Shown in pieces: positions 1 to 64,000 of a DNA stretch of 64,000 nucleotides (position 1 is its first letter; every line of letters starts with the position of its first letter). The DNA comes from Blastocystis sp. Blastoise (Eukaryota; Protista; Bigyra: Opalinata). The stretch is taken from assembly GCA_039096225.1 (NCBI GenBank), contig JBBPEB010000002.1, forward strand, positions 496,001 to 560,000, given 5' to 3'. A program made the position numbers and the translations under genes. A model generated the notes under the pieces. That model searched no databases. It was not told the origin of the DNA and saw only the letters and a program-made list of their open reading frames with translations.

Positions 1-230
1 TTCCCATAAAAATGATTTAAAGAGATTTGATTGGTTAAACTAGAGTGACAATAGGTGTGTCACACTTTTTCATTTCGTTTTCTTTTTCTATATATTATCT
101 ACTTACTACTTTACTTTTTAAAAGTAATAAGTAAAGAAGTAAGAAAACCCCATATATAATAAAAAGTTTGGGTGAGATAAAAAGAGCCAGTTCGGATTTA
201 TTTGATTGGTTGAACGAAATATTGGTTCAT
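1..230 (+). repeat. Left terminal inverted repeat of element 1
   Basis: Blocks TTTGATTGG, TGAC-N9-GTCA, TACTTACTACTTTA, AACCCCATATATA, AAAGAGCCAGTTCGGA, TTTGATTGGTTGAACGAAA recur in reverse complement, same order, at 24271-24502. Confidence 0.85.
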
Positions 231-390
231 TTTTTTCATTTCGTTTTCTTTTTCTATATATTATCTACTTACTTACTACTTTACTTTTTAAAAGTAATAA
301 GTAAAGAAGTAAGAAAACCCCATATATAATAAAAAGTTTGGGTGAGATAAAAAGAGCCAGTTCGGAATCATTTGATTGGATGAACAAAAT
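66..390 (+). repeat. Near-identical ~170-bp tandem duplication inside the left end
   Basis: 66-196 is repeated at ~233-366 with one extra 4-nt TACT/ACTT unit. Confidence 0.9.
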
Positions 391-569
391 GTTTTTCTTG
401 AAATAATTTCAAATAAAAACATTCAATTTGATATCTTTTAAATTTACCCCTGGATTTCTTTTTTCATTATAAAAATTTAATAAATAAAATATACCCCCAT
501 GGTTATAATTTTTTTTATTTTTTTTTAATTTAAAATATTTTTCATTTTTATTTTATTTTTAGAAAAAAA

Positions 570-974
570 ATGAGTGAAAATACTTTAATATTTGGTGAAA
601 AAGAAAAAGACAGGTATTTTGCTATTTATGTTATTTATAAATTATATAGTTTCATTGAAGACCACAATCAAATGAAAAAAGATGCTTGTGATATATTAAG
701 AGCTGACTTAGCAGAGTGTTCATTAGTTAATACAGCCATGAAAGTAACTAATCCCAAAAACAAAGGAGAAAAGTATATATTAAGCAAACAAATGATAGAT
801 TTTTTTGAAAAAGAATACTCTCCAGCAGTTAAAAAGTTAATCGGTTTACTTGAAAAAAGTGATGATAATCTTATTGATATCTATAATAAAAATAAAGAAG
901 ATTTTATTAATTTTGATAAATGTTTTGATAAGATGCTTGATTATCAGTCTAGAATATCGAAATATTTTCATTAA
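570..974 (+). CDS. Hypothetical protein (element 1 terminal region)
   Basis: 134-aa ORF, ATG after A-run, normal composition; no recognised motif. Confidence 0.6.
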   Translation: MSENTLIFGEKEKDRYFAIYVIYKLYSFIEDHNQMKKDACDILRADLAECSLVNTAMKVTNPKNKGEKYILSKQMIDFFEKEYSPAVKKLIGLLEKSDDNLIDIYNKNKEDFINFDKCFDKMLDYQSRISKYFH

Positions 975-1156
975 AAATATTGAATTCCTATTAGTAGTTT
1001 TTTGTTTATTTTTTTAAATTTTTAAACCACTAAAATCGAATATTCTTTTTAAATATCTAAAAAAGAATAATTAGAACTGACTCTATTTAAAAATATATTT
1101 TAATAATTTCACATAATTTATTTATTTTTTAATTTTTTAAAAGTGGATATTTACGA

Positions 1157-1441
1157 ATGGATAAGGAAATTAATAACACCCAGGATGTATGTAAAGATGT
1201 TGAAATGGATTCAGATCATCCTAAAACACCTAAGAAGCCCCGCCAACCCCGTGCAGTCTCAATAATTAAACGTAAAGGTGAAGATATTCAAGTTATTCCT
1301 GATTATTTACTGGTTTTCCTTAAGAATTTTAAAGTTATGCTTGATGATCTGCTAATGAATGATATGACCCAACGTCAGAAAATTGATGAATTATTTGAAA
1401 ATGATGAATCATCAAATTCTAAAAGAAAAAGAACTGCTTAA
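1157..1441 (+). CDS. Hypothetical small protein with basic NLS-like patches
   Basis: 94 aa, PKKPR and KRKR; followed by TGTTTTGTT at ~1476. Confidence 0.6.
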   Translation: MDKEINNTQDVCKDVEMDSDHPKTPKKPRQPRAVSIIKRKGEDIQVIPDYLLVFLKNFKVMLDDLLMNDMTQRQKIDELFENDESSNSKRKRTA

Positions 1442-1715
1442 TTTGTCTTAAAATTATCATTAATTAATAAAATTTTGTTTTGTTTTCTTTAAAACTGTTG
1501 GATAAATATCTTTAAGCCCATAATACACAACTCTATTAATTTTTTATAATAAAATGTAATTTAACCCCTGGATAATAACATTCCAGCCCCTGGATTGTTT
1601 CTCTATTATTTTTTAATAATAAACTTTCAATACCCCCTGGATCACTAAAAACGAAATCTTTTTTATTTTATTATAAATTTATTTTCATATTTATTTATAT
1701 TTATTTGGTGAAAAA

Positions 1716-1952
1716 ATGAAATTTTCGTTACAACACGATTTGATGACTGCCTGCTTAAATATTAAAAGATTGCAGCGTATGATCACAAAGATGCAGGAGG
1801 AAATAGATGATATGGTTGATACTATTGATAGAATTAATGATACTGTTCTAGAAGATTATTTAGAATTAACTGATGAAGATGATGATATTGAAGATCCTCC
1901 AAAATCACCAAGAAGTCCTCGAAGTATGGTCGAAAAAATCTTAAAATTTTAA
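1716..1952 (+). CDS. Hypothetical coiled-coil/acidic protein
   Basis: 78 aa, heptad-like N-half, SPR repeats; followed by TGTTTTGTT at ~2002. Confidence 0.6.
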   Translation: MKFSLQHDLMTACLNIKRLQRMITKMQEEIDDMVDTIDRINDTVLEDYLELTDEDDDIEDPPKSPRSPRSMVEKILKF

Positions 1953-2052: not shown

Positions 2053-2988
2053 ATGAGAAATAAAAATTTTGATGCCATTAAGTTAGCAATAATCAAAAGT
2101 ACCAATTGTGCTGGAAGTAAACGTAAATTTGCTATTATTATAGAAAAATATATTGAATATTTGCCTTGGGAAAAATTTAAGCAATTCTTGGAAAATCCTT
2201 ATGCTTTTGCTGATGAATTGGTGAATAAGAAGTTTATTAAGATTCATGAACTGCTGAAATTATCTGAATTAATCTTATATTTAATAAAGGTAAAACACTT
2301 TGAATCTAATTTTTGTGAAGATATTCATAATGATTGGTTAGAATTTAAAGATATTATTAAGAGTGCTTATGAACAATCCCTTCGTGAAAAGAAATCTGCT
2401 AGAATAGAAAATCTTCGAAAAGAATATCCAAATATAGAATCATTGGAATGTAAACGTGATGAATTAGATAAAGATGATATACTTAGAATTATTATTGATT
2501 TATATATATTATGTCCTCCTCAACGTGCTGATTATGGTATATGTTCTATTCAAACACCAGAAACTGTAACTAATAAAATGAGAAATTATATCATTTTTGA
2601 TAAGAATAATGAAACTGCTGAAATTCATCTGAAAGATTATAAGACTTCATATAAATATGAAGAAATTATAATTAAGAATAATGATAAGTTATATGAAGAC
2701 ATGAACTATATGTTAGAAAAAGAACCTGGTAGAGTGTTTATATTTGAAAAGACTCCTGGTAAACCATTTTGTGATGTTAAAGATTATGATAGATATATTA
2801 ATAATCATTTACGTAGATTACATCCAGAATTAACTATTAATGGTTGTCGTTTCTATTATGCTACTACAAATTGTACTTCTTTTTCTTCTTTAAGAGATGA
2901 TTCTGATAGATTAGCTCATACTAAAAGAACTCATATTGGTAGTTATGTATCTTTTACTCAAAGTGATTTATATAAAAAATTAATTTAA
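2053..2988 (+). CDS. Tyrosine recombinase A (PLV-type)
   Basis: PPQRADY (R), DYKT (K), INGCR (R), LAH..THIGSY (H,Y); homolog at 40300-41247. Confidence 0.85.
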   Translation: MRNKNFDAIKLAIIKSTNCAGSKRKFAIIIEKYIEYLPWEKFKQFLENPYAFADELVNKKFIKIHELLKLSELILYLIKVKHFESNFCEDIHNDWLEFKDIIKSAYEQSLREKKSARIENLRKEYPNIESLECKRDELDKDDILRIIIDLYILCPPQRADYGICSIQTPETVTNKMRNYIIFDKNNETAEIHLKDYKTSYKYEEIIIKNNDKLYEDMNYMLEKEPGRVFIFEKTPGKPFCDVKDYDRYINNHLRRLHPELTINGCRFYYATTNCTSFSSLRDDSDRLAHTKRTHIGSYVSFTQSDLYKKLI

Positions 2989-3079
2989 TTATTATTTGTT
3001 TATTTAAAAAAAAAAGTTGTTTAGTTTTAAAAAAATTATTTTATTATAACAAAACACAATAATTATAAAAACATATATA

Positions 3080-3565
3080 TTAATGACAATTATTATTAGA
3101 GAATAAATTAATAGGATTAGGAGAAAAATTATAATTATTTAAGACTTCATTAGTAGACGGCAAGGAGTAGAAATCTTCATGATTTTGTATATCTTTTGGA
3201 ATAGGGATATTAACTTGTTTTTCAAGTTGTGTAGATAAATGAGGCATCGTTTCAGAATTAACAGGATTTGAGATAGGAGACGTGACATTGATTTGATTTT
3301 TTTCTTTGTTTCTTGAGTGTTCTTCAATTTCATAATATAAATTATCTAAAGTATTTTCTAAATATTGTTTTTGTTCAGGATTAGAAATATAAATGATTAA
3401 ATTTCTAATAGAATCTAATTCTCTCTTTTGTATTGGACGAGTATGAAAATTAAGAAATTGTTCAACCAATTTAAAGAAATCATTTCCTTTACATTTACAT
3501 GCATCTAATTGAAGACTTTTAATATTTTTTGAGAATGTTGGCCACGGTAGAGGTTGACGATACAT
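3080..3565 (-). CDS. Conserved hypothetical viral protein
   Basis: LVEQFLN..RNLIIYI..LENTLD aligns with LLEQFLN..RNMLLYI..LEMLLD of 41321-41722, same syntenic slot. Confidence 0.75.
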   Translation of the reverse strand: MYRQPLPWPTFSKNIKSLQLDACKCKGNDFFKLVEQFLNFHTRPIQKRELDSIRNLIIYISNPEQKQYLENTLDNLYYEIEEHSRNKEKNQINVTSPISNPVNSETMPHLSTQLEKQVNIPIPKDIQNHEDFYSLPSTNEVLNNYNFSPNPINLFSNNNCH

Positions 3566-3634: not shown

Positions 3635-4204
3635 TTATGTAGGTATGATGGTACCTAAACTAGTTAAATATAATAATGCATAATAGAAACATCCATTAGA
3701 GTTTGAAGCAGTACTTTGGAATTGAATAGGGTTGTATTGAATATTATGTGTCTTAATAAATTGTGGAGAAAATTCTGGAGAATTCCCAAGACTGGAATAG
3801 AATTTCATATGTTCTGGACTTTCATAGATAACAGCTTCAAAATGACCGAAATTAGGGTCATCTTCAGATTGATGAAATAACATATTAAAGTTAGATTTTA
3901 TATTATCAATATTATGTTCAAAATCATTTAAATTATCCCAATATTTCCATGAACCTTTACATTGTGTATTCAGATTTTTCATTGTAGAATCTGCTATATC
4001 ACATGCAACAGGGTCACATGGATTATTTAAATATCCATATTTATATATTTTTGAAATTAAGTTTCTATTAATTATACCAGATAATTGAGCCAATGATTTA
4101 GCTATACTATCCAGAGGTTTAGGCTGACTAGATAATTGTTTATCAGAATAAATTTTTGTATTACAATTTAATTTATCTTGAATAATATCTTCATCAGGGC
4201 TCAC
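3635..4204 (-). CDS. Adenain/Ulp1-like cysteine protease (probably made as a -1 frameshift fusion)
   Basis: GHFEAV..YSSLG..NPIQFQ..NGCFYY (H..Q..C pattern); no ATG at start, frame open back to the A_AAA_AAC site at 4225-4231. Confidence 0.8.
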   Translation of the reverse strand: MSPDEDIIQDKLNCNTKIYSDKQLSSQPKPLDSIAKSLAQLSGIINRNLISKIYKYGYLNNPCDPVACDIADSTMKNLNTQCKGSWKYWDNLNDFEHNIDNIKSNFNMLFHQSEDDPNFGHFEAVIYESPEHMKFYSSLGNSPEFSPQFIKTHNIQYNPIQFQSTASNSNGCFYYALLYLTSLGTIIPT

Positions 4205-4206
4205 TT

Positions 4207-5325
4207 TTAAACCTCTGGTTGGTAGTTTTTTTGTAATCCAGCTCCTTCACCACAACCATTTTGTTGACATTGTCGTTTAGCAGCTTTACATTTTTGCATA
4301 TATTCATAAAAGGCACGACCACATAATTTTCTTGGTTTTTTCAATCCAGAAGCATTATTAGGTTGCATTGCTTCTGCTAATGCTCTTTTCTTTGCTTCTA
4401 TTTCTTGTTCTTGATAAACATTATCTACATTATTATCTAATTTATTATTTTCATTGGCTTTTCTCCAAAATTCAGGTGTGAATATTTTGCCAATTGCACG
4501 TGGAATTGCTGCAATATTATTTCCTAAATTCGTGACACCATCTTTTATTGCATTTGGATTAGTTGCTAATCCTTCAAATGCTTTTGAAGCCGCACCAATA
4601 CCAGCCAACATTGTAAGGAATCCACCACCTTCTTTCCAAAATTTTCCACCACGACGTACAGTACATCCGTTACCACTTGAATCACCTGAAAAATTAATAT
4701 AAGAACACAATTGTCTTTTTGAGGGTCTTTTAATACCACATCCAACTTTATTTAACCCTTTACCACCTAAATTCATGGTACTTGCTATACTTCTTATAAT
4801 TGAAGGTGGAATTAGCATTCCAGCACGAATTCTATGTTTTGACCATTTCTTATAATCTTTCATAGCTTCTTGAGAATAGCCAGCTGCTTTTAATACACCT
4901 TGACCAATTGAATTATATAATTTTGACATTTCTGCTTTATTAAAAGCTAATCCATTTCCATTTTTTGGTTCTAAAGCATCTGATTCTGAAATTACTTTTT
5001 TATTTGTAATTCCACGTCCATTTCTTTGAATACCTATTCTTGTAACTGGATTAGCAACAACCAATGAACCACCAGAATCACCATTATTATCACCAAACAT
5101 TTTATCTCGATTAACATAATTATCAACATTACCATTATTGACTTTTTGTGTTTTTAATTGTCTTGTCTTTGCAACACTATTTTCAGGTATTGCTACCATT
5201 AATGGATTATGCCTTTCAGCATTATTTAATGGTTGTGTAATATAATTTCTATTTTCTTTTCCATGTCCTAAATGAATAATACCTTTATCACCTGGACTTG
5301 GATATTTTAATATAGTTTGTTCCAT
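4207..5325 (-). CDS. Gly/Lys/Arg-rich putative virion core precursor 1
   Basis: Start MEQTILKYPSPG (5325) aligns with MQSCILGMPSPG of 42384-44111; many GG/GxG motifs like adenain cleavage sites. Confidence 0.6.
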   Translation of the reverse strand: MEQTILKYPSPGDKGIIHLGHGKENRNYITQPLNNAERHNPLMVAIPENSVAKTRQLKTQKVNNGNVDNYVNRDKMFGDNNGDSGGSLVVANPVTRIGIQRNGRGITNKKVISESDALEPKNGNGLAFNKAEMSKLYNSIGQGVLKAAGYSQEAMKDYKKWSKHRIRAGMLIPPSIIRSIASTMNLGGKGLNKVGCGIKRPSKRQLCSYINFSGDSSGNGCTVRRGGKFWKEGGGFLTMLAGIGAASKAFEGLATNPNAIKDGVTNLGNNIAAIPRAIGKIFTPEFWRKANENNKLDNNVDNVYQEQEIEAKKRALAEAMQPNNASGLKKPRKLCGRAFYEYMQKCKAAKRQCQQNGCGEGAGLQKNYQPEV

Positions 5326-5359: not shown

Positions 5360-6160
5360 TTAAGCAATTTTAATTGTTACATCTGAATATTCATCATAAT
5401 TTTTAATATTAAATTTATTCTTACGAATATATCGTAAAACCTCTTTATAATATACATTATTTCGACCTAATTCAACAAGCATATTCTCATTATCAGATAA
5501 GTATATATGTAATGTTTCAGGAGCAGACTTTAAATAGTTTATTAACTTATTGTTATCAAATATTATAGGTATATATTTATCATACATATTCATATAGGGT
5601 GGGTCCATATAAATAATACCATTTTGTATATTTTTAAGTAAATCATGATAATAATCACCACAAATAAATGAAACAGGCTGAATTAATTCTGAAATTTCTT
5701 TCAAATCATTTTCAGTATAAATAATAGGATTAGTATAATTACCATAACCAACATTAAATTTTCCTTCACGATTTATTCTCCATACACCATGATAACATGT
5801 TTTATTTAAATACAGAAATAATGCAGCACGTTCTATAGAATCTTTACTTTCATTAAATATTGTTCTATATTTATAATAATGTTCACAATCTATTTTATCA
5901 TGAATATTTTTTAAATAATCAACAATAAGTCTATAATCTAATTGGAGTATTTTCCAAAAATTAATTAAATCTGAACACATATCACATGCAAAATATTTTC
6001 GAGTAATATTATTAGTTTTATCAAATTTTAATACATTAATTAATATTGTTCCACCACCTAAGAATGGTTCATAATAATCTAAATTATTATTAAATCGTTC
6101 TTTAATAACAAAATCAGAAACAATATAATCTTTATTTCCAACCCATTTTAATAATGGCAT
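5360..6160 (-). CDS. dam: DNA adenine methyltransferase (Dam/D12 class)
   Basis: LKWVGNK, EPFLGGG (SAM-binding), FLYLNKTCYHG..R.N..G.FN, YMDPPY catalytic motif. Confidence 0.92.
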   Translation of the reverse strand: MPLLKWVGNKDYIVSDFVIKERFNNNLDYYEPFLGGGTILINVLKFDKTNNITRKYFACDMCSDLINFWKILQLDYRLIVDYLKNIHDKIDCEHYYKYRTIFNESKDSIERAALFLYLNKTCYHGVWRINREGKFNVGYGNYTNPIIYTENDLKEISELIQPVSFICGDYYHDLLKNIQNGIIYMDPPYMNMYDKYIPIIFDNNKLINYLKSAPETLHIYLSDNENMLVELGRNNVYYKEVLRYIRKNKFNIKNYDEYSDVTIKIA

Positions 6161-6319: not shown

Positions 6320-7612
6320 ATGATATTTAAAGAATTATTAATTTCTACTCCATTTATTCCTGATTATTTTGAAAATGATGATGCAATGAAAGCTATACAT
6401 AAATTTGAAGAACATATAAATAGATATGCTGGATTTAATCATGAATATGCTAATTATTTAATGCAAATATTATGTAGTTCTTTCTATTATGATTCTAATA
6501 AAGGGTTTTCTTATTTATTTTATGGACCAGATGGTGCTAACGGAAAAACACTAACAGGTGATTTATTATCTTCGATAATTGGTGATAACCAAGCAATTAC
6601 TGTGAATCCAGGTAATTTTGAATCAAAAGAAACACAACCTAAATTAATTGAAATGAGTAATAAACTTATGTATTACGTAAATGAATTAGATGAAGTATCT
6701 AGTAGTAAATTCAGTAATCCCGTAAATGTATTTAATACTCGAATATTTAAAGAATTAGCTGAAAAGAAATCAGGAGCTTCAGCGAGAAATTTATATTCGA
6801 AATCATATGATTCTATTAATTATACGGGAACATTATTTATTACGTCAAATATTCAACCAGGTTCTCGTAATACTCAACCATTACTTCGTCGTGTTTGTTT
6901 CCTTTACGGTGTTTCTCGATATTATGATAAGGCAGACCGTAACTTATACGAGATTGAATATAAGAATGACGAAAATAATTCGTTAAAAAGAATTATGATA
7001 ATTCCCGAAGATTCAAATATGCCGAAAAGATATAAGCCGAATCATTACCCGATGGACCCTTCGATAAAAGATTATTTCGAAAATTATAAATCCTATATAT
7101 TCTCGTATCTTGTCGATAATTATTTTTATTTAAGTACAAAATTAACGATAGGGAAACTTGATAGTTGTAAAATAATGGCTGAATGTAAATCACAATTTAT
7201 CGAGAAATCCAATAGCTTATACGATATGGATGAATTTGTCGAGAAACAAATATCTGTCGACCCTTATATGTTAAATGTCGTAAGCCTCGATGATTTATTT
7301 AATGCTTATCTTAGTCATACCTTTGATAGAAAATTTACGTTAAAGAAAGATAAAGAGACTTTTCGTAAATCATTTTTTGGTTGTTTACAGAATAAACCAC
7401 AATATATTTGTATCGATATGCATAATTTAGATTTGACACACAAATCCGAATATTATGTTGGTAACCAATTACGTGGAATCCTAGGATTATTAATTAATAA
7501 AAGATACAATGAAAAAGTATTGTTCAGTCATTATTGTGAAATGAATAAAGGACGTATTGGTCATCCTCCTAACGAAGATGGATACTTTAACGGATTTCAA
7601 AATAAAATATAA
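6320..7612 (+). pseudogene. 5'-truncated D5-like SF3 helicase (primase domain missing)
   Basis: YGPDGANGKT Walker A, YVNE, FITSN, LLRR; aligns only with the C-terminal part of 46975-49977. Homology (PYKKED) starts upstream of the ATG and is cut by TAA at 6296-6298. Confidence 0.75.
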
Positions 7613-7744: not shown

Positions 7745-9580
7745 TTAACAATAGAATTTACAATTAAAAAAATTATTTTTTTTGTGTGGTATTTTTGTTC
7801 TAAATAATCCTAAACCAATAGAACGTGTAAATAAATGTGTTCTTGGAACACAAATGCCACTACCAATATTTTCATTATTATCATTTTCATTTAAATATCC
7901 AGGATGTTCATTTCTATGAGGTCTTTTATCAGGTACAAGTGGTTCATGACGACATTCCCATTGGTTAATTGCGCTTGCAGCAAATGTTTCTCTGGTTGTT
8001 CGGACTTTATAACGTCTATTTATATCATATTGATTGGTTAATTCATGACATTTTGAAATATATTTTTCATAATATTGTTTATGTTGTAATGTAATATTTT
8101 CAATATCCAATCCTTCTGATTCTTTAGGAACATCATTATTTAAATCAATTAAATTTGGATATTTATTATTTTTTAAATCATCATAATATTGTTGAACTTT
8201 TTCTTTAAATTCATTTAAACCATTTAATGAAGAAATGAATATTGTTGATGAACCAGGTTCTTTACCTAATAATTCAGGTCCAAATACATCTGTATAATCT
8301 TCATGATAAGTATCTAATCTTTGAATAAAACGGTCATAAATTAATTTATCTCTTTCTTTATCATCTTTATCCATCATCATAAATAATGAATCTTCAGTTA
8401 ATGGAATTTGTCTTGTAATATTATCTAATACTTTTATATGTTTTCCACCTTCTAATAAATATGGAGAAATATAATTATTCATATGTGTTGTTTGTGAATG
8501 AAGCATTTTTGAAATACTATTTACAAATACACGAATAGCTTTTCTATGTTCATCTGGATTTCCTGTACCTTCAAGTATTTTCATTTGTCTATAATAATGT
8601 TGTGCAAATAAATGACGAATCATATCACAACCAGTAATTAATTGTTTTTCTTGATTATATTCATTTGTATAATGATATAATTCTCCTAAATGGTCTTTTA
8701 TATAATCACCAAAATTACTATCATTAACTGGACTATCAAGTCTATCTCCGGAAGTAAATAAATAATTACGGGGACATAAACGTAATGACCTAGCTAAAAC
8801 ATTCATTAATTCTTCAGTTATATATTGTAATGTAGGATATAAGTTATAACCAATTTCAAATTTATTTTTAGTATCATTTACGTGTATAGTTAATGTATTT
8901 AAATCAATATAATTTGTACTTTTACGTAAAGTTAATGGGATTACATCACCTCTTCTATATATTCGACATATACCATAATCATTTCTACAACATAGACAAT
9001 CATAACATAATACTAATAAATATGAATTAACATAAAATAAATCATTTGGATGTTCAATGTAATTCTGTTTACAACGTTGTATTAATTGACCCCAATCACA
9101 TTTTGCACTAATAATTTTATTTGTATATTCTTTATGACGAAGATTTGTTGCATCAACATTTAAAGAACCAAAATGTTGAGTCCACTTTTTAATATTTTTA
9201 TTACTAAATACAGAATGTCTTAATATATCATTATCATCTGTACATAATTCAATATTTTTCATTATATAAGTAAACATTTGCATATAATTTGATATTGTTG
9301 TAACTGACAAACCTCCTTGTTGTCCACGTGCAGATGTAGGTAAATTCATTAATGTTTCTTGAAATGCTTCAGGATTCCCAAGAATTTCAATACATAAATA
9401 TGTTTTGGGGTCTAAAGTTCCTTCTTCAATACCTTGTTGCATTTTTACAGATATATTATGTATCCAATTTTTCCAATTAATACTAGTTGATTCTTGTATC
9501 TTTCTAAAATGTCTTAATTGATTAACACACATTACAAAAAAATCTTCACATTCTTGTGGAGAATCACCACGTGATTGCAT
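7745..9580 (-). CDS. Tyrosine recombinase B (large, with N- and C-terminal extensions)
   Basis: CCRNDY (R), NDTKN (K), DMIRH (R), MLHSQTTHMNNY (H,Y); homolog at 50023-51819. Confidence 0.8.
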   Translation of the reverse strand: MQSRGDSPQECEDFFVMCVNQLRHFRKIQESTSINWKNWIHNISVKMQQGIEEGTLDPKTYLCIEILGNPEAFQETLMNLPTSARGQQGGLSVTTISNYMQMFTYIMKNIELCTDDNDILRHSVFSNKNIKKWTQHFGSLNVDATNLRHKEYTNKIISAKCDWGQLIQRCKQNYIEHPNDLFYVNSYLLVLCYDCLCCRNDYGICRIYRRGDVIPLTLRKSTNYIDLNTLTIHVNDTKNKFEIGYNLYPTLQYITEELMNVLARSLRLCPRNYLFTSGDRLDSPVNDSNFGDYIKDHLGELYHYTNEYNQEKQLITGCDMIRHLFAQHYYRQMKILEGTGNPDEHRKAIRVFVNSISKMLHSQTTHMNNYISPYLLEGGKHIKVLDNITRQIPLTEDSLFMMMDKDDKERDKLIYDRFIQRLDTYHEDYTDVFGPELLGKEPGSSTIFISSLNGLNEFKEKVQQYYDDLKNNKYPNLIDLNNDVPKESEGLDIENITLQHKQYYEKYISKCHELTNQYDINRRYKVRTTRETFAASAINQWECRHEPLVPDKRPHRNEHPGYLNENDNNENIGSGICVPRTHLFTRSIGLGLFRTKIPHKKNNFFNCKFYC

Positions 9581-17868: not shown

Positions 17869-17902
17869 AATCCACATAATTTATTTATAAATTCTTTATT
17901 AT

Positions 17903-45924: not shown

Positions 45925-45990
45925 CATAGAGATTCTACACTGTCTCCTAGAATATTTAATATTCCATTTAAATGTATTATTTATTTCATT

Positions 45991-54943: not shown

Positions 54944-56437
54944 ATGAGAATCTTAAGAATTAAAGATAATATTCCTATTCAAAGCAATACTGATATTCTA
55001 TCTAGTCCTTATATCTTTCAATATCATTGGACTAATGTGGATAATACTTATATCAATTTCAATCAATCATATTTGGATCTTACTGTCAAGGCAACTGTCA
55101 CAGATAAAGCTGGACCAGTTTCTGTTTATTTAGATGAAACAGGTACTTCTGCTAGTTTCACCTATGATCAATTATGTCAATATTTCTTGGATCAATTAGT
55201 TCAGAAAGCTAATATTTATTCTATTATTGATACTACTGATGTTGAAATGGTTTATACATTACCTGATGGATCTGATCGTGCTTTAAAATATGAAGAAAAC
55301 TGTACACATGCTTCACGTGGTCGTAAAATGATATTATTAAAAGATATTAGTAAAAATGATTTAGAAAAATCTATGTATGGTGAAGATTTATCTGCAGATA
55401 CTTATGAATTGAATTCTATTCGTTATATACGTGCACATCCAGATGAATCTATTCATATTGCTATTCCTTTATATCTTATTAGTGGTTTAGGTGTTGATGG
55501 AGATTCTTTAATATTAACTAAACATTTCAATATGTTATTTAGAACTAGTACTATTGAATCATTAATTGATAATAAAATGAGTATTTATTTCAAGAATGGT
55601 ACTGCTACCAAAACTACCGAATGGTTACATTTAGATGATGAAAATTGGTTTAGTACATTTAAGATTGAATCAGCTACTATGAATTTAATGACTTATAAAG
55701 ATATTCAGTTCCAATCGAATGAATTATATAAAACTATACCTACATGTATTCAAGTTGATTATCAAAATACAAGATTAACTACTAATCATTTCAATATCAA
55801 TAGAGCTTTACCATTTATACCTGAATATATATTATTTTGGTTTACAAATGGTTATAGTTCAACAACTATTAGTAATATAGCTAGTCCAAATGTATGGCCA
55901 ACATATCAAAGTTGTTTGATTGGTGATGTTCAAATGTTCCCTCAAACTGAATTCCCTACTCAAATGTATTATCATAATCTTACTACAAAAGGTCATGTCT
56001 TCAATAATGCAGAAACTACTAGTTTATCTTGTCCTAATAAGAATTTATATTGTTTATGGGCTGATAATTCAAATCCTGAAACTATTCTTAAATATGATGA
56101 ATGGATTAAACATCCTATTTATATTATTCCAACAAAATCATTAATGAATATCCAATCAGATAGTGGTATTGAATTGAATTTCGATTGTAATGTTGATGTT
56201 CATGATGTTAAATATGAACATATTGATTCATCCACTGTTCCTGATGGACAAACGTGTCAATGGAAAAGTTACGTTGATCCAACAGATAAAAAGACAAAAT
56301 ATCACTGGGAAGCTGATACTGCCTCTTATAAGGTAGCTTCTCATGCTGGTATTTATAAACATACTACTACTGATCTAAGTGATAGTTCTCCTTATACCTT
56401 ACATATGATTGCTGTACGTAGTGTGCGTGATATTTAA
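54944..56437 (+). CDS. Putative major capsid protein 1
   Basis: 497 aa; ortholog of 12595 (HASRGRKMI, FPQTEFPT, EWIKHPIY, RS.RDI). Confidence 0.65.
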   Translation: MRILRIKDNIPIQSNTDILSSPYIFQYHWTNVDNTYINFNQSYLDLTVKATVTDKAGPVSVYLDETGTSASFTYDQLCQYFLDQLVQKANIYSIIDTTDVEMVYTLPDGSDRALKYEENCTHASRGRKMILLKDISKNDLEKSMYGEDLSADTYELNSIRYIRAHPDESIHIAIPLYLISGLGVDGDSLILTKHFNMLFRTSTIESLIDNKMSIYFKNGTATKTTEWLHLDDENWFSTFKIESATMNLMTYKDIQFQSNELYKTIPTCIQVDYQNTRLTTNHFNINRALPFIPEYILFWFTNGYSSTTISNIASPNVWPTYQSCLIGDVQMFPQTEFPTQMYYHNLTTKGHVFNNAETTSLSCPNKNLYCLWADNSNPETILKYDEWIKHPIYIIPTKSLMNIQSDSGIELNFDCNVDVHDVKYEHIDSSTVPDGQTCQWKSYVDPTDKKTKYHWEADTASYKVASHAGIYKHTTTDLSDSSPYTLHMIAVRSVRDI

Positions 56438-56614: not shown

Positions 56615-57838
56615 ATGGAAGGATTCCCAAGACAATTCTTACCTTCAAAGGCAAATCAAACTATTAAACCTGTACAAATTCCTATTCTAGTTTCTACAAG
56701 TCAAGATTTATTAAATCAACCTTATCCATTTGAATTCTTATATAATTCAGTGGATAGCCCTTATATTGATTTCAGTAATTCATTCTTAGAACTGAATTTC
56801 AATATTACTGGTACTAGAGACAAAAATTCAACATCTTCAGTTGTACAACATTCTAATATCTATAGTATTATTGATAAAATTACTACAGATCTTACGTTTG
56901 TATCTCCTACTGGTCAAGATATTCTTATTAATTATTCTGAATCTTCTATTGAATCCAGTAAAGCAAGAAAATTTGTTACTATTAAAGAATTAAGTAAAGA
57001 TGAAATTGATAAATCTATGTATAGTATGACAGAATGCTTATATAATAACACGTTGAGTAGTATTGCTGGAATGGAAATGAAAGAAAAAGCTCAAGTTATT
57101 ATTCCTTTATCTCTTATTACTGGTCTTGGTACATTTGATTGTGCTATTAAAGTAAAATCTTTGAAGATGCAATTCGTTACAAATTATTTAAAGAATCTAT
57201 TTACCGGTACCACTGTAATCACTGCATTGAAATTTGATCGTGTTTATATTCATCTTCAACAAATCTATGATATTAATTTTGGTAATGATCCACGTGCTTT
57301 GATTAAATGTATTCCTAATAATTGTCAGATATCTGCATTCACTACACCTGTTTATTCACAAGCATCAGTATCAGGTACACCAACTCCACAACAATTCTTA
57401 TCCAATAGAAGTGTTGTTTTCGTACCTGATTATTGTATGTTATACTTCACAAATCAAGAGAAGAGCATGATTCCTATTAAAACTGAATTATTAAAATCAT
57501 GTCAATTCCAAATTGGTGGTCAAAATATCTTACCAAAGACGGATTTCCCTACTACGTATAAAACAACGAATCCATCACAAATTATCCCTAATGCTATGCT
57601 TTATAATACTTGGAGATGTAATAGTCATCCTCAATCTCCTTTAAATGGTGAAAAGTGGTATGAACAACCTATTTATATATTCCCTATTTCAAGTGTTGTT
57701 GATGTCAATACGCGTAGTGGTTGTGAAGTTAATATCTCATTATTAACTGAATATACTGGTGGAACTGTTACTGGTCCTTATACTTTATATGCTCATTTTA
57801 TATTTGTTAAATTTGTTAGAGATGGTGCTACCAATTAA
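56615..57838 (+). CDS. Putative major capsid protein 2
   Basis: 407 aa; ortholog of 14183 (YNSVDSPYIDFSNS, CIPNNCQ, GEKWYEQP, FVKF.R.GA.N). Confidence 0.65.
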   Translation: MEGFPRQFLPSKANQTIKPVQIPILVSTSQDLLNQPYPFEFLYNSVDSPYIDFSNSFLELNFNITGTRDKNSTSSVVQHSNIYSIIDKITTDLTFVSPTGQDILINYSESSIESSKARKFVTIKELSKDEIDKSMYSMTECLYNNTLSSIAGMEMKEKAQVIIPLSLITGLGTFDCAIKVKSLKMQFVTNYLKNLFTGTTVITALKFDRVYIHLQQIYDINFGNDPRALIKCIPNNCQISAFTTPVYSQASVSGTPTPQQFLSNRSVVFVPDYCMLYFTNQEKSMIPIKTELLKSCQFQIGGQNILPKTDFPTTYKTTNPSQIIPNAMLYNTWRCNSHPQSPLNGEKWYEQPIYIFPISSVVDVNTRSGCEVNISLLTEYTGGTVTGPYTLYAHFIFVKFVRDGATN

Positions 57839-57935: not shown

Positions 57936-58616
57936 ATGACATCAATATCTCATCTAAGTAAAATTACAAGTCAAATCTGTCATGAACAATTCAATTATAC
58001 TTTGGATTTAGTAGGTAAAAATATTACTCATATCAATACATTAGTGAATACAAGTGATATCATTAATATTCCTGAATTTCTTTTGTATGATACCGCATCT
58101 GTCCCATTTCAAAAATATACATTTCCAGCTGGTAACTATTCATTGGAAGAATTCTTAGAAAAAATTGTTGAAATTGGAAAAAATATGAAATCATTAGTAG
58201 ATGGAAAGACTTGTGCTTATTATTATGATAAAGAAACAAAAACATTTGGAACATATGCTCAACACAGAATAGATGAATCTAAAATATTGTTTGATTTGTT
58301 AGGTATTAAAACCTATTATTGGGATTATACTAGCCAACCTATCGTTTTTACTGATGATTATATATCCAAGAATATTTCATGGTATAAGATCTATATGTTA
58401 CGTGTGTATTGTGATATTATTAATAAAGATAATGATTTGATTTCTATTCCTTTATATGCTAAACAAGGATTTGATAATACATTTGCTTTAAGTGATTTAT
58501 CTATTCCATGTATTGATGGTAAATATACAGATATCCAATGGGAAGTATATGATCAATTAAATAATCCAATTGATTTATCAAATACAAATCTTTATATATA
58601 CTTTACAGCATCTTAA
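57936..58616 (+). CDS. Penton/minor capsid protein
   Basis: FPAGNYSLEE, DLLG, RVYCDII, VYDQLNNPID: Polinton-type penton pattern, between MCPs and ATPase. Confidence 0.7.
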   Translation: MTSISHLSKITSQICHEQFNYTLDLVGKNITHINTLVNTSDIINIPEFLLYDTASVPFQKYTFPAGNYSLEEFLEKIVEIGKNMKSLVDGKTCAYYYDKETKTFGTYAQHRIDESKILFDLLGIKTYYWDYTSQPIVFTDDYISKNISWYKIYMLRVYCDIINKDNDLISIPLYAKQGFDNTFALSDLSIPCIDGKYTDIQWEVYDQLNNPIDLSNTNLYIYFTAS

Positions 58617-58687: not shown

Positions 58688-59725
58688 ATGGTGAATAAAA
58701 TAAATCCATTAAAAGAAACACGTAAAGGATGTGGAGTTTTAGAATTTAAATATGGAAAATCTCATCATAAAACATATGAATCGAAATTCATATTGATTAT
58801 TGCAAGAACATTCTCAGGTAAATCATTCTTAACTGTGAATCTATTATGTTCTATGGATCTTAAAAATAAATATAAACAAGTCACAGTTATTTGTCCTGAT
58901 GCATCCAATAAGAATGAATGTTATACATCCTTTCAAGATATTTGTGAACATGCTGGAATTGATTATAAATGGTATGATTCTGTTGATGATAAATTTAAAA
59001 AGATTAAGACTATTGATGAATTAGTCAATACATATAAATTACCAGAACATAATTTTATTGTATTGGATGATATCTATCCATTATCTAGACAAACCAAACA
59101 ATTGATTGTATCTATATTATCTAAAGGTCGTCATTATAAACAGAATGCTATTATATGTCTTCAAAGTCATACAGATGTTACCAATCAATCTATATTAAGT
59201 CAAGTATCTCATTTCTTTATTAATAGTCAAATCTTAAAACGTGATCCTGGATTCTTACCAGATAAATTAAAGATTATGCCATCAAATCTAAATGAAATTC
59301 TTACAGATGAAGAATTAATGAATGATCCACATCAATTCTTTATGTTAAAACAAGGTAGTGATGATTTAACGATATGGACAAATCCTGATTGTGGTAGTAA
59401 ACAGAATGTATATAAGATGGTAAAGAAAAGGAAATGGACAGAAGAAGATAGTGAAAAAGAGAAACGAGAAGAACAAGGTGAAGTATCAGGTAGTGGTATT
59501 AAACGTCCTAATGAACATATATCTACATATGAAAAGAAAATGAAGAAGTTTTTACCTGTTGAAGAAGAAGTCTCATTGAAAGGTATTGAACGAGATGAAA
59601 AAGATAAACCTAAAGAATCCATCTTACAAATCATACAAGATCAAATCATACAAGATAGTCAACGACGCATTTTTAATCCTTATTTAAATAAAAAACATTA
59701 TTCTGGTTATCCATCTTTTCATTAA
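58688..59725 (+). CDS. A32/FtsK-type genome packaging ATPase
   Basis: IARTFSGKS (Walker A), FIVLDD (Walker B), KGRHY..IICLQ (Arg finger and sensor). Confidence 0.9.
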   Translation: MVNKINPLKETRKGCGVLEFKYGKSHHKTYESKFILIIARTFSGKSFLTVNLLCSMDLKNKYKQVTVICPDASNKNECYTSFQDICEHAGIDYKWYDSVDDKFKKIKTIDELVNTYKLPEHNFIVLDDIYPLSRQTKQLIVSILSKGRHYKQNAIICLQSHTDVTNQSILSQVSHFFINSQILKRDPGFLPDKLKIMPSNLNEILTDEELMNDPHQFFMLKQGSDDLTIWTNPDCGSKQNVYKMVKKRKWTEEDSEKEKREEQGEVSGSGIKRPNEHISTYEKKMKKFLPVEEEVSLKGIERDEKDKPKESILQIIQDQIIQDSQRRIFNPYLNKKHYSGYPSFH

Positions 59726-59780: not shown

Positions 59781-60806
59781 ATGAGTTCAATTACAAAAAG
59801 ATATTTAAAACAAAATTGTGATCCACGATTATTTGGAGGATCACCACCAAAATCAAATCGACGTGATCTTTATCATAAACGTTATGTAAGATATGGAGGA
59901 ACTGGTTTTGAAGAAATTGTTAGACAACAAACTAGAGATGCTGATTGGGCTGACTTTAAAAATGGTGTCTATACTGCATTACCTATTTTAGGTACATTAG
60001 GAGCATTTGCTGGATATAATTATTATCAGAAACGTAAAGAACAAAAACGTCAAGAAAAAGCAAAAGAAGAAAAGAAAAGACAATTTGAAGAACATATTGA
60101 AGATGCTAATAGAGATGATGAATTATATAACGATGATGCTACTTATCAACCAAAGAGAATAACAAGAAAAATGATGACTGATGATGATAAAGATTTTGAT
60201 AATAATGTTGTTGATGAAGATGATTATGGTCAAGGTACTCATAGAAGGCATCAGAAACATCGTAAAGAACATGGGAGTCACCGAGAAAAAGAAAAGAAAA
60301 CAAGTAAATTCGTAACTCCTCAAATAAGAATTATTGCTAAGAAGGCTATTCGTTCTAGTAATGTAAAGTCTAATAAGAAGAAATTACAAGATATTAAAGA
60401 ACGATTACCTAAAAATGATGAGCATGTGTCTGTACGTGATATTGTTAATGTCGTTATCGATAAAGAATATCCTATGGATCCAAAACAAAAGCATTCTATT
60501 ATTGCGAATACTGCTATTAAAACTATTAAAACGATTGTTCCTATTGTAGTGAATGCATTAAAATACTATTATCCTTCTCTTGGTATCCCTATTGATTTCG
60601 CTTATAATATGATTACTACTGATGATGATAAGAAACGTAAAGAAACTGCTGATAACTATTTTAAAAATCCTAGTGGAAGTGGTGTTACAAAAGAGAATGC
60701 TGAACGTTGTGGTGGTGCACTTGTCAACTCTACATCCTTTGATACTACTACTAATCTAATTATTAATCTTGTTCAATTCTTCTTAAAAAAATTCCATTTA
60801 AATTAA
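59781..60806 (+). CDS. Conserved hypothetical protein with one hydrophobic segment and GG motifs
   Basis: 341 aa; ALPILGTLGAFAGY; homolog of 17074-17868. Confidence 0.7.
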   Translation: MSSITKRYLKQNCDPRLFGGSPPKSNRRDLYHKRYVRYGGTGFEEIVRQQTRDADWADFKNGVYTALPILGTLGAFAGYNYYQKRKEQKRQEKAKEEKKRQFEEHIEDANRDDELYNDDATYQPKRITRKMMTDDDKDFDNNVVDEDDYGQGTHRRHQKHRKEHGSHREKEKKTSKFVTPQIRIIAKKAIRSSNVKSNKKKLQDIKERLPKNDEHVSVRDIVNVVIDKEYPMDPKQKHSIIANTAIKTIKTIVPIVVNALKYYYPSLGIPIDFAYNMITTDDDKKRKETADNYFKNPSGSGVTKENAERCGGALVNSTSFDTTTNLIINLVQFFLKKFHLN

Positions 60807-60882
60807 TTATTTTAACTTTTATTATTTCATAATTAATTATTTGTTTTGTTATATAATTATTTTAAAATTAATACAATAAATA

Positions 60883-62061
60883 ATGCAAAGTAATTTAGGA
60901 GATAGTGTAACTCTCTATGATATTTTATCAAGAAATCAGAAAAAACAATCTTGGGATCCATGGTTACCGAATTCATATATTTGTCAAGATGAACAACCTG
61001 TACAACCTTTAGCACATGATCCTAATGCACAAGGATCTATGTATAGCTCAATGGCAGTTCAAGCATTAAGAAATCATGGTCAATCAACTGAAGATATGTT
61101 TATAGCTACTATGAATTCAGCTAAAGCTAATGGAGATACTGCAAGATACTCATCTATGTTATCTCAATGGCAAACTAATTATGGTGTACCTACTACCAGT
61201 AAGATATGGTATGATGCTAGTAATCCTAATAATTATCAATATGAAACGTTATTATCTTCAATAAAAGGCTTAAATGGATTGAATTCAGAAGCATATAAAC
61301 AGAATAAAGAGAATTATGAATTCTATTCAAATGCTCAAAAAGATATGTATGATCAATTAAACAATATTTCATATCAAATTAAAACAAATAATGATGACAT
61401 TCATGCTGAAGCAGCATCAATGAAACAAAATATGACTAATAATTATGAAAATCTACATAAAGATAACGAATATTTGAACTCAAAGATGGATACAAATGAA
61501 AATAATCGTCAATCAGATAATAATATTACAAACTCTAAAATGGATACATATGAAAATAATCGTAAAAAAGATGTTAACAATACAAATTCGAAGATGGATA
61601 AATATGAAAATAATCGTCATCAAGACTACAACAATACACAATCTAGAATGGATAAATATGAAAAGAATCGTCAAAATGATACTAATAAAACAAACGCTAA
61701 GATGGATGAATATGAAAGTAACCGTAAAAAAGATGCCAAAGCATTTGAAGATAAGATGGATGAACAAGGTATGCATTATGATATTGTTGAAAGTGGCATA
61801 CCATTCACAATTTATGTTAATGGTAAGAACTCAAAAGTAATATGTAATCAGCCAGAGTTTAAGGATCAGGTATTCCTTCTTAAAGATGAAAAGATTTATG
61901 TCAGATCAGCTGAAAAGTCAGGTTATATATATAAAAAGTACGGAACAATGCCACTTGATGAATTCATTAGCAAATATAATGAAGGCTTATTTAATGAAAA
62001 TAAGGCACTTCCTGATAAAGAACATAGTGGATTAAGAAATCATCAAAACGATGAAACTTAA
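60883..62061 (+). CDS. Hypothetical protein with 18-aa tandem repeats
   Basis: NSKMD.YENNR..D.N.T x5-6; N-terminus shared with 17903. Confidence 0.75.
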   Translation: MQSNLGDSVTLYDILSRNQKKQSWDPWLPNSYICQDEQPVQPLAHDPNAQGSMYSSMAVQALRNHGQSTEDMFIATMNSAKANGDTARYSSMLSQWQTNYGVPTTSKIWYDASNPNNYQYETLLSSIKGLNGLNSEAYKQNKENYEFYSNAQKDMYDQLNNISYQIKTNNDDIHAEAASMKQNMTNNYENLHKDNEYLNSKMDTNENNRQSDNNITNSKMDTYENNRKKDVNNTNSKMDKYENNRHQDYNNTQSRMDKYEKNRQNDTNKTNAKMDEYESNRKKDAKAFEDKMDEQGMHYDIVESGIPFTIYVNGKNSKVICNQPEFKDQVFLLKDEKIYVRSAEKSGYIYKKYGTMPLDEFISKYNEGLFNENKALPDKEHSGLRNHQNDET

Positions 62062-62183
62062 TAGACTATATTATATTTACTTATTTATGCAATATTATGT
62101 TTGCCATTTAAGTTATAATTTTGTTAATATATATTTATTTTTTTGTTTTGTTTTAAAATTCATAATTATTTTATTAAACTAAA

Positions 62184-63674
62184 ATGATACAAAGTGCTCG
62201 TTTAAATGTTTCAAATAAAGGATTAGTAGGCGTAAATCATCGTGCTACTGGTCATGAATATCGAAATTATATTGTTCCAGGATCTATTCCTGATGGAGAA
62301 GAACGTTATCCAATTAATTATTCTATTGCTCCAAATTCATTATATGCTGTTAAGAAAATTGAAAGTAATATGGTCAATAGAGCAACATCCAATCCATTTT
62401 TCTCCTATTTATCAGAAACCAGACAAGATATTATACAAAGTTCATTAGAAGAATCGGAAGAAACTGAACCAATAGATGAAGGATCTGGGTTATTACCTGA
62501 TGGTAGAATTCCAAAGAATTTTACAAGAAAACTCATTTATGCTCATGATTATGTTTTACCTTATATGAAACAAAATCATATGTCTGACTATGCTAAATAT
62601 TCAAGATTATTAAATCCTCGTACAATTGATAGTGCAATTGATTTTACTAAAAGAGATCGTGATGGTTATTTATATTCTAGAGGTGGTAATTTATTTTCTA
62701 ATATTTATCACACTGTGAGTGATGTATATAATGTGTCTGATAAATTAACTGGAGGTATTAATAACATCACTCATGGAATAAGTAATGCTGTTGATTATGG
62801 TGCAAATAAATTCAAAGATCTCAAGAATTGGTGGAGAGATATTAATGTTGATCCACAAGAAGGATTCAATGATATTAAAGGAAAACTTGTAAGTGATAGA
62901 AACAATTTATATGATAATTGGAAATTAACTGATGATAATGAAGCTAAGAAAAATAATAAAATATTAGCTGATAACTATTTCAGATTTGCTCATATGTCAG
63001 GTAATGATACTAAAGAACAAAGACTTAACAAAAAGGTATCTTTAGATAATCAAGCAACAACATTTCATAAAAATTATATTCCATATGCAGAAAACCCAAC
63101 ATTTGTTAATAAAGTTGTTAATACTGCAACAAATGTATCAAAACCTGTGTATAATGGCGTTAAGAAAGTTGCAAACTCTATTGTTAGTGGTACAAAGAAC
63201 GCGTTTAATAGTTTTTCTAATTGGTGGTATGGTAAAAATCCAGAGGAAGAAATACCGCAAACAGAAAATCCAATAGAAACAAATAATAATGTTATATCAA
63301 CTCCTTCATCTACCCCTGATACTCTAACACAAGAAAATATTCATAATATTACTATAGAAGATTCAAATCCTCCAAATCTAATTCCTCTTATAAATGATCC
63401 TACTGTTCCTTTACCTGATACTGTTCCTATGTCTCAAGCAATCACGAATAATTTCACTCCAAATATTACACCTGTAGCCCCTATTCCTAATCCAGTAGAA
63501 AATGTCACTCTTGAAAATAATAATAAAAGAAACAAAGAAGAAGATGATGAATTTCAATCATTTGATGAAGATGATGGTGAGGTATTTTATGATCTCGAAG
63601 AAGGTAATGGATTACGTAGAAAAAGACGTATTTCAAAAAATAAAAAATTAAGAAATAAACGTAGAAAACATTAG
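62184..63674 (+). CDS. Putative core precursor 2
   Basis: GVNHRATGHEYRNY, SRGG, basic tail GNGLRRKRR; ortholog of 18196. Confidence 0.65.
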   Translation: MIQSARLNVSNKGLVGVNHRATGHEYRNYIVPGSIPDGEERYPINYSIAPNSLYAVKKIESNMVNRATSNPFFSYLSETRQDIIQSSLEESEETEPIDEGSGLLPDGRIPKNFTRKLIYAHDYVLPYMKQNHMSDYAKYSRLLNPRTIDSAIDFTKRDRDGYLYSRGGNLFSNIYHTVSDVYNVSDKLTGGINNITHGISNAVDYGANKFKDLKNWWRDINVDPQEGFNDIKGKLVSDRNNLYDNWKLTDDNEAKKNNKILADNYFRFAHMSGNDTKEQRLNKKVSLDNQATTFHKNYIPYAENPTFVNKVVNTATNVSKPVYNGVKKVANSIVSGTKNAFNSFSNWWYGKNPEEEIPQTENPIETNNNVISTPSSTPDTLTQENIHNITIEDSNPPNLIPLINDPTVPLPDTVPMSQAITNNFTPNITPVAPIPNPVENVTLENNNKRNKEEDDEFQSFDEDDGEVFYDLEEGNGLRRKRRISKNKKLRNKRRKH

Positions 63675-63748
63675 TTAATATTAATTTGTTTTATTTATTA
63701 TTATTTTTAAAAACTAAACAATTTGTTTTGTTATTTATAAAAATTAAT

Positions 63749-63916
63749 TTAAAAATTAATATAATTCTTGATATAATCTTCATATTCATCTTCACTTTCA
63801 GTTTTAATAGTATCCACTTCAGAATCACTATCACTTAATTCATCAACTTCAAAGTTTCCATAAGGTTTCCAAGTACCTTGTTTATAATCTGGAGCAAATT
63901 GCTTTGGAGAATCCAT
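63749..63916 (-). CDS. Small acidic protein, 55 aa (absent from ORF track)
   Basis: MDSPKQFAPDYKQGTWKPYGNFEVDELSDSDSE...; HSE array upstream; same slot as the small minus gene of element 1. Confidence 0.55.
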   Translation of the reverse strand: MDSPKQFAPDYKQGTWKPYGNFEVDELSDSDSEVDTIKTESEDEYEDYIKNYINF

Positions 63917-63962
63917 AATATATAGTATAAAAATAGAAAAAATTCACAATACAATTTTATTG

Positions 63963-63990
63963 TTCTAGAATGTTCTAGAATGTTCTCGAA
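63963..63990. promoter_or_regulatory. Heat-shock-element array
   Basis: TTCtaGAAtgTTCtaGAAtgTTCtcGAA. Confidence 0.72.
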
Positions 63991-64000
63991 AATTTTTAGT

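Follow-up and report, generated by a model that had tools for sequence, protein, structure and literature searches.

To our knowledge, the proven triggers of endogenous Polinton-like viruses (PLVs) are giant-virus infections. In the available passages of the literature, to which the statements cited here and below are limited, a helicase-primase with a tyrosine recombinase (YR) and no pPolB is typical of PLVs (PMC7805220; PMC10120064; Barth et al. preprint), and AEP-SF3 proteins are commonly paired with a YR (10.64898/2026.10.13.758929). The Trimcap PLVs are defined by three major capsid proteins (MCPs) and sometimes have two pentons (10.64898/2026.06.19.733378). For Blastocystis, the only virus found in the literature was the B. 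hominis MELD virus, which encodes PolB and an integrase (Starrett et al. 2021, PMC8502044). Here, a 64,000-nt stretch of Blastocystis sp. Blastoise (assembly GCA_039096225.1, contig JBBPEB010000002.1, positions 496,001 to 560,000; hereafter the window) was analysed, which carries two related elements, E1 and E2. E2 was read as a stress-inducible, nuclear, prophage-like provirus in which the host heat shock transcription factor (HSF) would drive the recombinase YR-A and the primase-polymerase-helicase, and this whole explanation was given a probability of roughly 0.6.

Identification and comparison of the two elements

The GC content of the window was ~25%. E1 spans positions 1-24501 and E2 begins at about 39900-40170 and runs past 64000, with 89% of 40170-64000 covered by open reading frames (ORFs). 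Host repeats lie between the two, namely miniature inverted-repeat transposable elements (MITEs), a tRNA, a pogo-like remnant and a Helitron. Nine of the ten looked-up proteins were found on a contig of 1,322,594 nt, and their cluster mates carry the NCBI label Blastocystis; both elements were therefore taken to be chromosomal. An earlier inspection of the letters alone (the sequence-only reading) had claimed two syntenic elements with the order YR-A, u1, protease, core1, variable slot, helicase, YR-B, long penton, MCP1, MCP2, short penton, ATPase, u2, u3 and core2, and both were recovered by ORF content and BLASTP. BLASTP identities between E1 and E2 were 38% for YR-A, 33% for u1, 57% for the protease, 28% for core1, 44% each for helicase and YR-B, 28-39% for the long penton, 44% for MCP1, 50% for MCP2, 62% for the short penton (over 74 aa) and 60-68% for pieces of the ATPase. 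With DNA similarity only in patches of 65-78% identity, and proteins mostly 28-62% identical, the pair is therefore not a recent duplication, in agreement with that reading.

E1 and E2 are almost certainly integrated copies of a Blastocystis PLV with a double-jelly-roll capsid. In size and location, E1 is PLV-like (24.5 kb, 74% terminal inverted repeats (TIRs), integrated on the 1.32-Mb contig), and so is the replication and integration set, with an SF3 helicase, YR residues and an Atlas match, the AEP part being motif-based. Neither pPolB nor the RVE of strict Polintoviricetes (Maverick/Polinton) was found within the window: Pfam gave no PolB, PolA or RVE in the 43 ORFs, a six-frame scan with four PolB/PolA motif patterns gave no match, and the sole DDE match of Pfam among the 43 ORFs was the host pogo-like remnant between the elements. 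The lack of pPolB and DDE integrase reported by the sequence-only reading was thus reproduced, and its assignment to a distinct lineage of PLV type was kept; its argument from the gene set was dropped because the absence of pPolB and RVE is ordinary for PLVs. The doubled MCPs and pentons likewise lost their value as an argument for novelty, since multiple MCPs, and in some cases a pair of pentons, are known in Trimcap, and the features called unusual are mostly known already. The heat-shock-type arrays of E2, the predicted core1-protease frameshift and the number of copies had escaped that reading. The claim of no DNA polymerase stood for PolB and PolA, but the 1000-aa protein of E2 is probably a primase-polymerase joined to an SF3 helicase, judging from N-terminal DxD and H motifs ahead of the helicase; the AEP label was taken from motif patterns that we presume to be diagnostic. 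By locus tags, the ATPase of one copy is followed, four tags on, by the YR-A of the next, a gap that fits just u2, u3 and core2 and therefore argues against a polymerase beyond core2; the tags of other copies likewise provide no place for an additional gene from YR-A to core2.

Trimcap PLVs are alike in having several MCPs, two pentons in some members and stramenopile hosts (PMC7805220; 10.64898/2026.06.19.733378). However, three highly divergent MCPs are present there, whereas each element here has two (20 to 20 records in the assembly), which are each other's closest relatives. The Blastocystis hominis MELD virus shares the host genus and has virion proteins unrecognisable by sequence, but carries PolB and an alpha-adintovirus-type integrase (PMC8502044) where E1 and E2 have a primase-helicase and two YRs. 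The best predicted-structure match of MCP1 was a record named 'MELD virus sp.' (A0A8S5L5M3; E 4e-16, TM 0.55/0.64, 11% identity), which may or may not be the Blastocystis virus, and the next matches had E-values of 5e-9 or weaker. Gossevirus (GKS1) PLVs and oomycete elements differ in the single MCP described for them, and the MCP1 profile revealed no sequence link to them. One literature search found no PLV with two YRs. In the available parts, Blastocystis was absent from the main text of three PLV sources (PMC10120064; 10.64898/2026.06.19.733378; 10.64898/2026.10.13.758929), and no passage on viruses was found in those of the Blastocystis genome paper (PMC10690189).

Heat-shock-element-like arrays and transcription signals

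The 10-bp repeats of E2 are alternating nGAAn/nTTCn units, arranged in seven arrays with 4-11 perfect units each. The arrays lie at 40176..40223 (9/10 units perfect, 88 nt before YR-A), 41791-41813 (5/5, 95 nt upstream of u1), 44858-44915 (11/12, 77 nt upstream of v1), 45907-45924 (4/4, 111 nt before v3), 46770..46888 (two arrays, 8/8 and 10/10, ending 86 nt before the primase-helicase) and 63963-63990 (6/6, upstream of a terminal 55-aa ORF). Overall, six of the 19 E2 ORFs, those of YR-A, u1, v1, v3, the primase-helicase and the 55-aa protein, had an array 46-111 nt upstream, and the other 13, including all predicted virion genes and YR-B, had none. The four-unit pattern gave 14 matches against 0.03 expected, and Markov simulations (n=60) never exceeded four units. 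In the six longest arrays 49 of the 51 core triplets were perfect and the spacers took 11 forms.

The HSF consensus is nTTCnnGAAn (PMC3907296), and the arrays fit it because the GAA/TTC triplets are kept while the spacers vary. With at least three alternating nGAAn units in promoter position, E2 also shows the sequence feature of HSF-regulated mobile elements of the ONSEN type. ONSEN of Arabidopsis is a mobile element whose nTTCnnGAAn is bound by host HSF and whose activation is coupled to heat (PMC3907296). It is an LTR (long terminal repeat) retroelement with one promoter, whereas in E2, a DNA virus, seven arrays precede six genes and HSF binding is putative. Judged by title, no paper on heat-shock-factor promoters in polintons was found, and no paper on a Blastocystis heat shock transcription factor was found in the search. 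From the pattern and placement of the arrays, HSF control of the E2 early genes appears reasonably probable.

Several observations weigh against the provirus reading. E1 has no array, and HSF control is therefore not family-wide. Seven-unit nGAAn arrays were found on 18 IMG/VR contigs, and at seven sampled loci 12 of the 18 ORFs had Pfam matches, all of phage or bacterial types; such arrays can therefore arise without HSF. No terminal repeats of E2 were seen within the window, its right end lying past 64000. The AEP, penton and protease labels found no database support in family searches that included Pfam. Finally, giant-virus helpers are required by several of the isolated PLVs (10.64898/2026.06.19.733378; 10.64898/2026.10.13.758929). 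As a separate observation, a 16-unit nGAAn run was present on three large low-GC (21%) IMG/VR contigs.

The same virus could instead use the arrays as binding sites of a viral protein (iterons, arm sites of a recombinase or sites of an autoregulator), with induction not via HSF. The comparable arrays on contigs of bacterial phages and integrative elements, one group of them within a replication-initiator-like gene, agree with such a function, as does the lack of arrays in E1. The array at 63963-63990 also has an inverted match to 40171-40199 (29 nt, 97%), the best in E2, and these two terminal arrays may belong to terminal repeats. However, this alternative is unlikely given that the seven arrays precede six start codons at 46-111 nt in both orientations and that conserved GAA/TTC triplets with varying spacers fit the HSF consensus.

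In addition, the motif TGTTT(T)GTT was found downstream, in sense, of 15 of 18 E2 genes and 5 of 17 E1 genes, the shuffled mean being 0.29 of these 35 genes. It is similar to the polyadenylation motif of Blastocystis, TGTTTGTT (PMC4159000; motif also PMC5608401), and, as a Blastocystis-like 3' signal, points to transcription by host polymerase II. In tortoise isolates the motif TGTTTGTT is not enriched (PMC10690189), which leaves two explanations, a longer variant of the 3' motif in the low-GC lineage or a viral signal that belongs to another lineage. The sequence TGTTTTGTT was considered as a promoter and rejected, as it occupies gaps between convergent genes and only one of the four divergent gaps has it.

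These signals also bear on a helper-dependent, virophage-like PLV that would be woken by an unknown giant virus, with arrays that sense the stress of infection or are incidental. The Gezel and Tetraselmis PLVs do depend on giant viruses (10.64898/2026.06.19.733378) and no RNA polymerase is encoded here, but 3' signals of host type and promoter-like arrays suggest that the host transcribes the element in the nucleus, and the egovirus study detected no gene flux linking Blastocystis with the gut giant viruses that it covered (10.1101/2024.03.23.586382, available passages). Such a helper-dependent element was considered quite improbable, and helper independence of the provirus was regarded as an even chance.

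Copies and relatives

E2 is intact, with every ORF open. In the same assembly, 20 MCP1 and 20 MCP2 records (counted by hand) with 89-100% identity fall on 13 contigs told apart by size, with locus tags in E2 order, and the suggestion of the sequence-only reading that E2 may still be functional gained support from both observations. The long penton had 20 copies in four clusters. Identity among copies was 98.4-99.4% for YR-A (nine listed), 98.5-99.3% for the primase-helicase (14 of 18) and 96.6-99.5% for YR-B (14 of 20). Among the listed copies, the capsid proteins were 89-99.6% (MCP1), 93-99.8% (MCP2) and 86-98.5% (long penton) identical. The variation of the long penton was concentrated in residues 101-500, with up to 31 of 50 residues differing, and residues 501-827 were nearly invariant; the variable segments of MCP1 were 201-250 and 401-497. 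Pentons wholly different among copies were considered and rejected, since they were 86-99% alike. The near-constant replication genes and varied capsids are consistent with E2 having spread recently in two or more capsid types.

E2 might now spread only as a transposon or by segmental duplication of the host, with its capsid genes as passengers. No particle is known, and the copies are clustered on some contigs, beside E1-type copies by locus tag. Against this, nearly every listed copy has its capsid, ATPase and core genes at full length, the variation falls on the middle of the long penton and segments of MCP1 while the replication genes are ~99% identical, and relatives recur on genome-length metagenomic contigs; this route of spread was considered very improbable. 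E1-type copies elsewhere were 99% identical to E1. The assembly also contains at least one further MCP1/MCP2 family, with 44-51% identity to E2.

An MCP1 profile searched against 1.84 billion proteins had 11 matches, five full or near-full family members and six fragments, and no MCP outside its own family. Word searches gave 87 relatives of MCP2 (83 at 55-63% identity) and 14 of MCP1, the largest cluster having 343 sequences. Among the ten clusters listed, the longest contigs recurred at 23.7-24.0, 26.3-26.9 and 27.4-27.5 kb, and seven contig sizes were common to one MCP1 and one MCP2 cluster, which suggests genome-length metagenomic relatives with both MCPs. Short-pattern scans of viral contigs, JGI metagenomes, GTDB and INPHARED, which are no proof of absence, found no related loci. 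The lineage is isolated and looks undescribed, and published tables of endogenous viral elements, sets of hidden Markov models and MELD genomes may already hold relatives.

Predicted frameshift between core1 and the protease

In both elements the protease occupies the -1 frame of core1 on the minus strand, and this frame is open beginning at an A AAA AAC heptamer that stands in frame 5-6 codons ahead of the core1 stop. E1 core1, a basic protein, is encoded at 4207..5325 and the predicted cysteine protease of E1 at 3635..4231; in E2 they lie at 42384..44111 and 41818..42411. The predicted frameshift signal of E1 (4111..4231) consists of the heptamer at 4231-4225, a 6-nt spacer and an 11-bp stem closing 86 nt, and that of E2 (42292..42411) of the heptamer at 42411-42405, a 7-nt spacer and an 11-bp stem closing 84 nt. 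The stem sequences differ between the elements, and the fold z-scores were -4.4 (E1) and -3.4 (E2). The two core1 heptamers were the only in-frame A AAA AAC in 22 ORFs, and of 600 random positions one scored equally well. No TGTTT(T)GTT 3' motif separates core1 from the protease. The heptamer, a spacer of 5-9 nt, the structure, the open -1 frame and conservation, in two elements only, together make a -1 ribosomal frameshift that yields a core1-protease fusion very probable as a prediction. A point on the other side is that introns joining core1 to the protease are possible on paper, their positions being non-homologous between the elements.

The protease ORF starts with ATG in E2, and no ATG is present at the homologous position of E1; the E1 protease was considered as a start-less pseudogene and this was rejected, the missing ATG being explained by the predicted frameshift. 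MMTV (mouse mammary tumour virus) and HTLV (human T-cell leukaemia virus) use A AAA AAC for their gag-pro frameshift. The arrangement here is alike in the slippery heptamer, the 6-7 nt spacer, the stem and the predicted fusion of a core protein to a maturation protease. It differs in that the virus is a dsDNA jelly-roll virus, the protease a predicted cysteine protease and the stem one that encloses 84-86 nt. The E2 protease ORF was absent from the protein collection; the predicted frameshift suggests why gene callers miss the proteases of such viruses and offers a route to search for them elsewhere.

Capsid, packaging and core proteins

MCP1 of E2 (54944..56437, plus) was modelled from an alignment of 16 sequences (mean predicted local distance difference test, pLDDT, 78.8). 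The best structural match was the faustovirus MCP (Z 19.3, root-mean-square deviation 4.9, 360 aligned residues), followed by PBCV-1 (Paramecium bursaria chlorella virus 1; Z 18.9), Sputnik (17.1), ASFV (African swine fever virus; 17.1) and mavirus (16.6). All top matches were double-jelly-roll capsids and Foldseek was concordant; by this model MCP1 is a double-jelly-roll protein. With regard to a virophage-type MCP, Sputnik and mavirus scored below faustovirus and PBCV-1, the Atlas neighbours were mixed and Pfam gave no match. MCP2 (56615..57838, plus) is homologous to MCP1 (probability 100%, 358 columns, 26-29% identity), and the double-jelly-roll MCPs proposed by the sequence-only reading were confirmed by model and homology; a single-sequence structure prediction of MCP2 reached a pLDDT of 33. 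An MCP tree of 34 chosen sequences (13 MCP1, 21 MCP2; fragments and most near-copies excluded, no outgroup) placed MCP1 and MCP2 on separate sides with 100/100 support. Each side contained host and metagenomic members, and the pair is therefore old within the family.

The doubling of modules held for the MCPs, which are true paralogs, and in weaker form for the two YRs, which are distant relatives, and the two core proteins, which share ~60 N-terminal residues (probability 62%); for the pentons a paralogy was not recovered, the predicted long (52378..54861, minus) and short (57936..58616, plus) pentons giving an hhalign probability below 1%. The penton labels come from motif and synteny, that of the short penton also from BLASTP to E1. 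The predicted packaging ATPase (A32/FtsK-like; 58688..59725, plus) has a P-loop, lies beside the capsid genes and matched PHROG terminase-type/head-packaging families (E 1e-10) and FtsK (E 0.04). The A32 profile had no match to it, the A32 label coming from motif and synteny. The protease label has the same basis, with the motifs GHF and Q-x-T-x-SN-x-NGC in both elements. Searches of the PDB by sequence with the element proteins gave nothing useful. The word G-x-G-[ILVA] occurs 7-8 times in core1 (eight in E1, seven in E2) against about one expected, 1-2 times each in core2, u2, the ATPase and the YR-B tail, and not in YR-A or the helicase; these words are putative protease cleavage sites, on the assumption of an adenain-like specificity.

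Proposed cycle of the E2 provirus

Under the stress-inducible provirus reading, stress would activate host HSF, which would bind the arrays and, by way of host RNA polymerase II, turn on the early genes. YR-A would then excise the provirus and the AEP-SF3 protein would replicate E2 in the nucleus, and the late genes would end at the Blastocystis-type GU-rich 3' signal. The capsid may be built of two MCPs and two pentons and filled by the ATPase. The -1 frameshift would yield a minority core1-protease fusion, as in gag-pro, by which the protease may be carried into the particle at a fixed ratio, and the packaged protease would cut the G-x-G sites. YR-B lacks an array and carries G-x-G sites in its tail; it may travel in the particle and insert the genome once a host cell has been entered. 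This division of labour between YR-A and YR-B is the weakest step and was proposed tentatively. A widespread and undescribed eukaryotic prophage, helper-free, with an HSF switch, a packaged second recombinase, a frameshift-dosed protease and swapped capsids on a near-constant backbone, is a conceivable generalisation, though a rather doubtful one.

Blastocystis is the commonest gut eukaryote and can be cultured. With about 20 intact copies and a readable candidate switch in a culturable gut protist, the question of activation is testable and, if the reading is true, Blastocystis would gain an inducible DNA virus and possibly an integrating tool. More than the doubling of genes, it is the candidate stress switch, the predicted frameshift of gag-pro type and the presence of many intact copies that make the locus interesting.

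Gene content of E2

Other E2 genes were YR-A (40312..41247, plus; PF00589 E 0.087), u1 (41321..41695, minus), v1 (44187..44780, minus; 197 aa), v2 (minus) and v3 (plus) within 45110..46659, and the predicted AEP primase-polymerase fused to a D5-type SF3 helicase (46975..49977, plus; phrog_1156 and TIGR01613). YR-B (50023..51819, minus) had an Atlas match, and v4 (51887..52309, minus) lies beside the long penton. Downstream of the ATPase lie u2 and u3 (59781..62061, plus), core2 (62184..63674, plus) and the inward-pointing 55-aa ORF (63916-63749, minus). The catalytic residues R, K, R, H and Y are kept in YR-A and YR-B of both elements; the two YRs had an hhalign probability of 91% and no BLASTP match. 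The Atlas neighbours of YR-B were Preplasmiviricota clusters, with PF00589 on 16% of members. A protelomerase was considered for YR-B and judged less likely, its Atlas neighbours being YRs of PLV type.

The left end of E2 is directly abutted by a minus-strand Helitron (33801 to about 39900) that encodes Rep and PIF1 domains. The Helitron has a 3' hairpin and a CTAG end, and its 5' end near 39900 was guessed from an A|TC junction. The Helitron was rejected as a replicase of E2, having its own 3' hairpin and CTAG end and no E1 counterpart. Between the Helitron and the first E2 array lies a GC-rich inverted repeat (40079-40120, z -4.8), possibly a site of recombination or a piece of the E2 end.

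Gene content and decay of E1

E1 is dead because a MITE splits the long penton, the ATPase has in-frame stops, u2 and u3 are fragmented and the N-terminus of the helicase is missing. Its left TIR (1-230) is followed by a 170-bp tandem duplication of the inner part (together 1..393, a period-170 repeat) and matches the right TIR (24270..24501) at 73.6% over 239 nt; the left end touches the window start and the real end may precede position 1. Three small ORFs (134, 94 and 78 aa; 570..1952, plus) had no family match. They are followed by YR-A (2053..2988, plus), with R-K-R-H-Y intact, and u1 (3080..3565, minus). In the variable slot, next to core1, lies a Dam-type adenine methyltransferase (5360..6160, minus; PF02086 E 1e-33). 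The SF3 helicase (6320..7612, plus; phrog_1156 E 3e-12) aligns to residues 566-965 of the E2 protein and is missing its N-terminal ~560 aa. YR-B (7745..9580, minus) has a C-terminal extension.

The predicted long penton (9627..12525, minus), pieced together with tblastn, is broken by a 181-bp host MITE with an 8-bp target duplication (10992..11172) and two more frame changes. MCP1 (12595..14121), MCP2 (14183..15493) and the predicted 122-aa short penton (15536..15904; BLASTP to E2) follow on the plus strand, as do the ATPase pseudogene (15988..17037; stops at 16216 and 16690), the fragmented u2 and u3 (17074..18064), core2 (18196..19287; tblastn from E2 core2, E 2e-6) and a low-complexity ORF of 933 aa (19472..22273) without E2 counterpart. 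A Ser/Pro-rich, apparently spliced gene within the right end (23205-24014, plus) had no family match. The word CCCCTGG occurs four times (447, 1565, 1587 and 1634), all ahead of the left small ORFs, and is perhaps E1's own early-promoter word. The sequence GAGCCAGTTC is common to the E1 TIRs and the E2 u1 promoter.

Host repeats around the elements

The MITE in the E1 long penton (10992-11172) and a second copy at 26612-26804 make up one family, which we presume to be hAT-like; its ends are CAGTG/CACTG-like and its target duplications 8 bp long. Related pieces were found at 24688-24831 and 27403-27555. The pogo-like remnant is a broken DDE_1 transposase (28261-29300, minus). Finally, the sole Rfam match in the window was a tRNA, the tRNA-Asn at 27710-27783.

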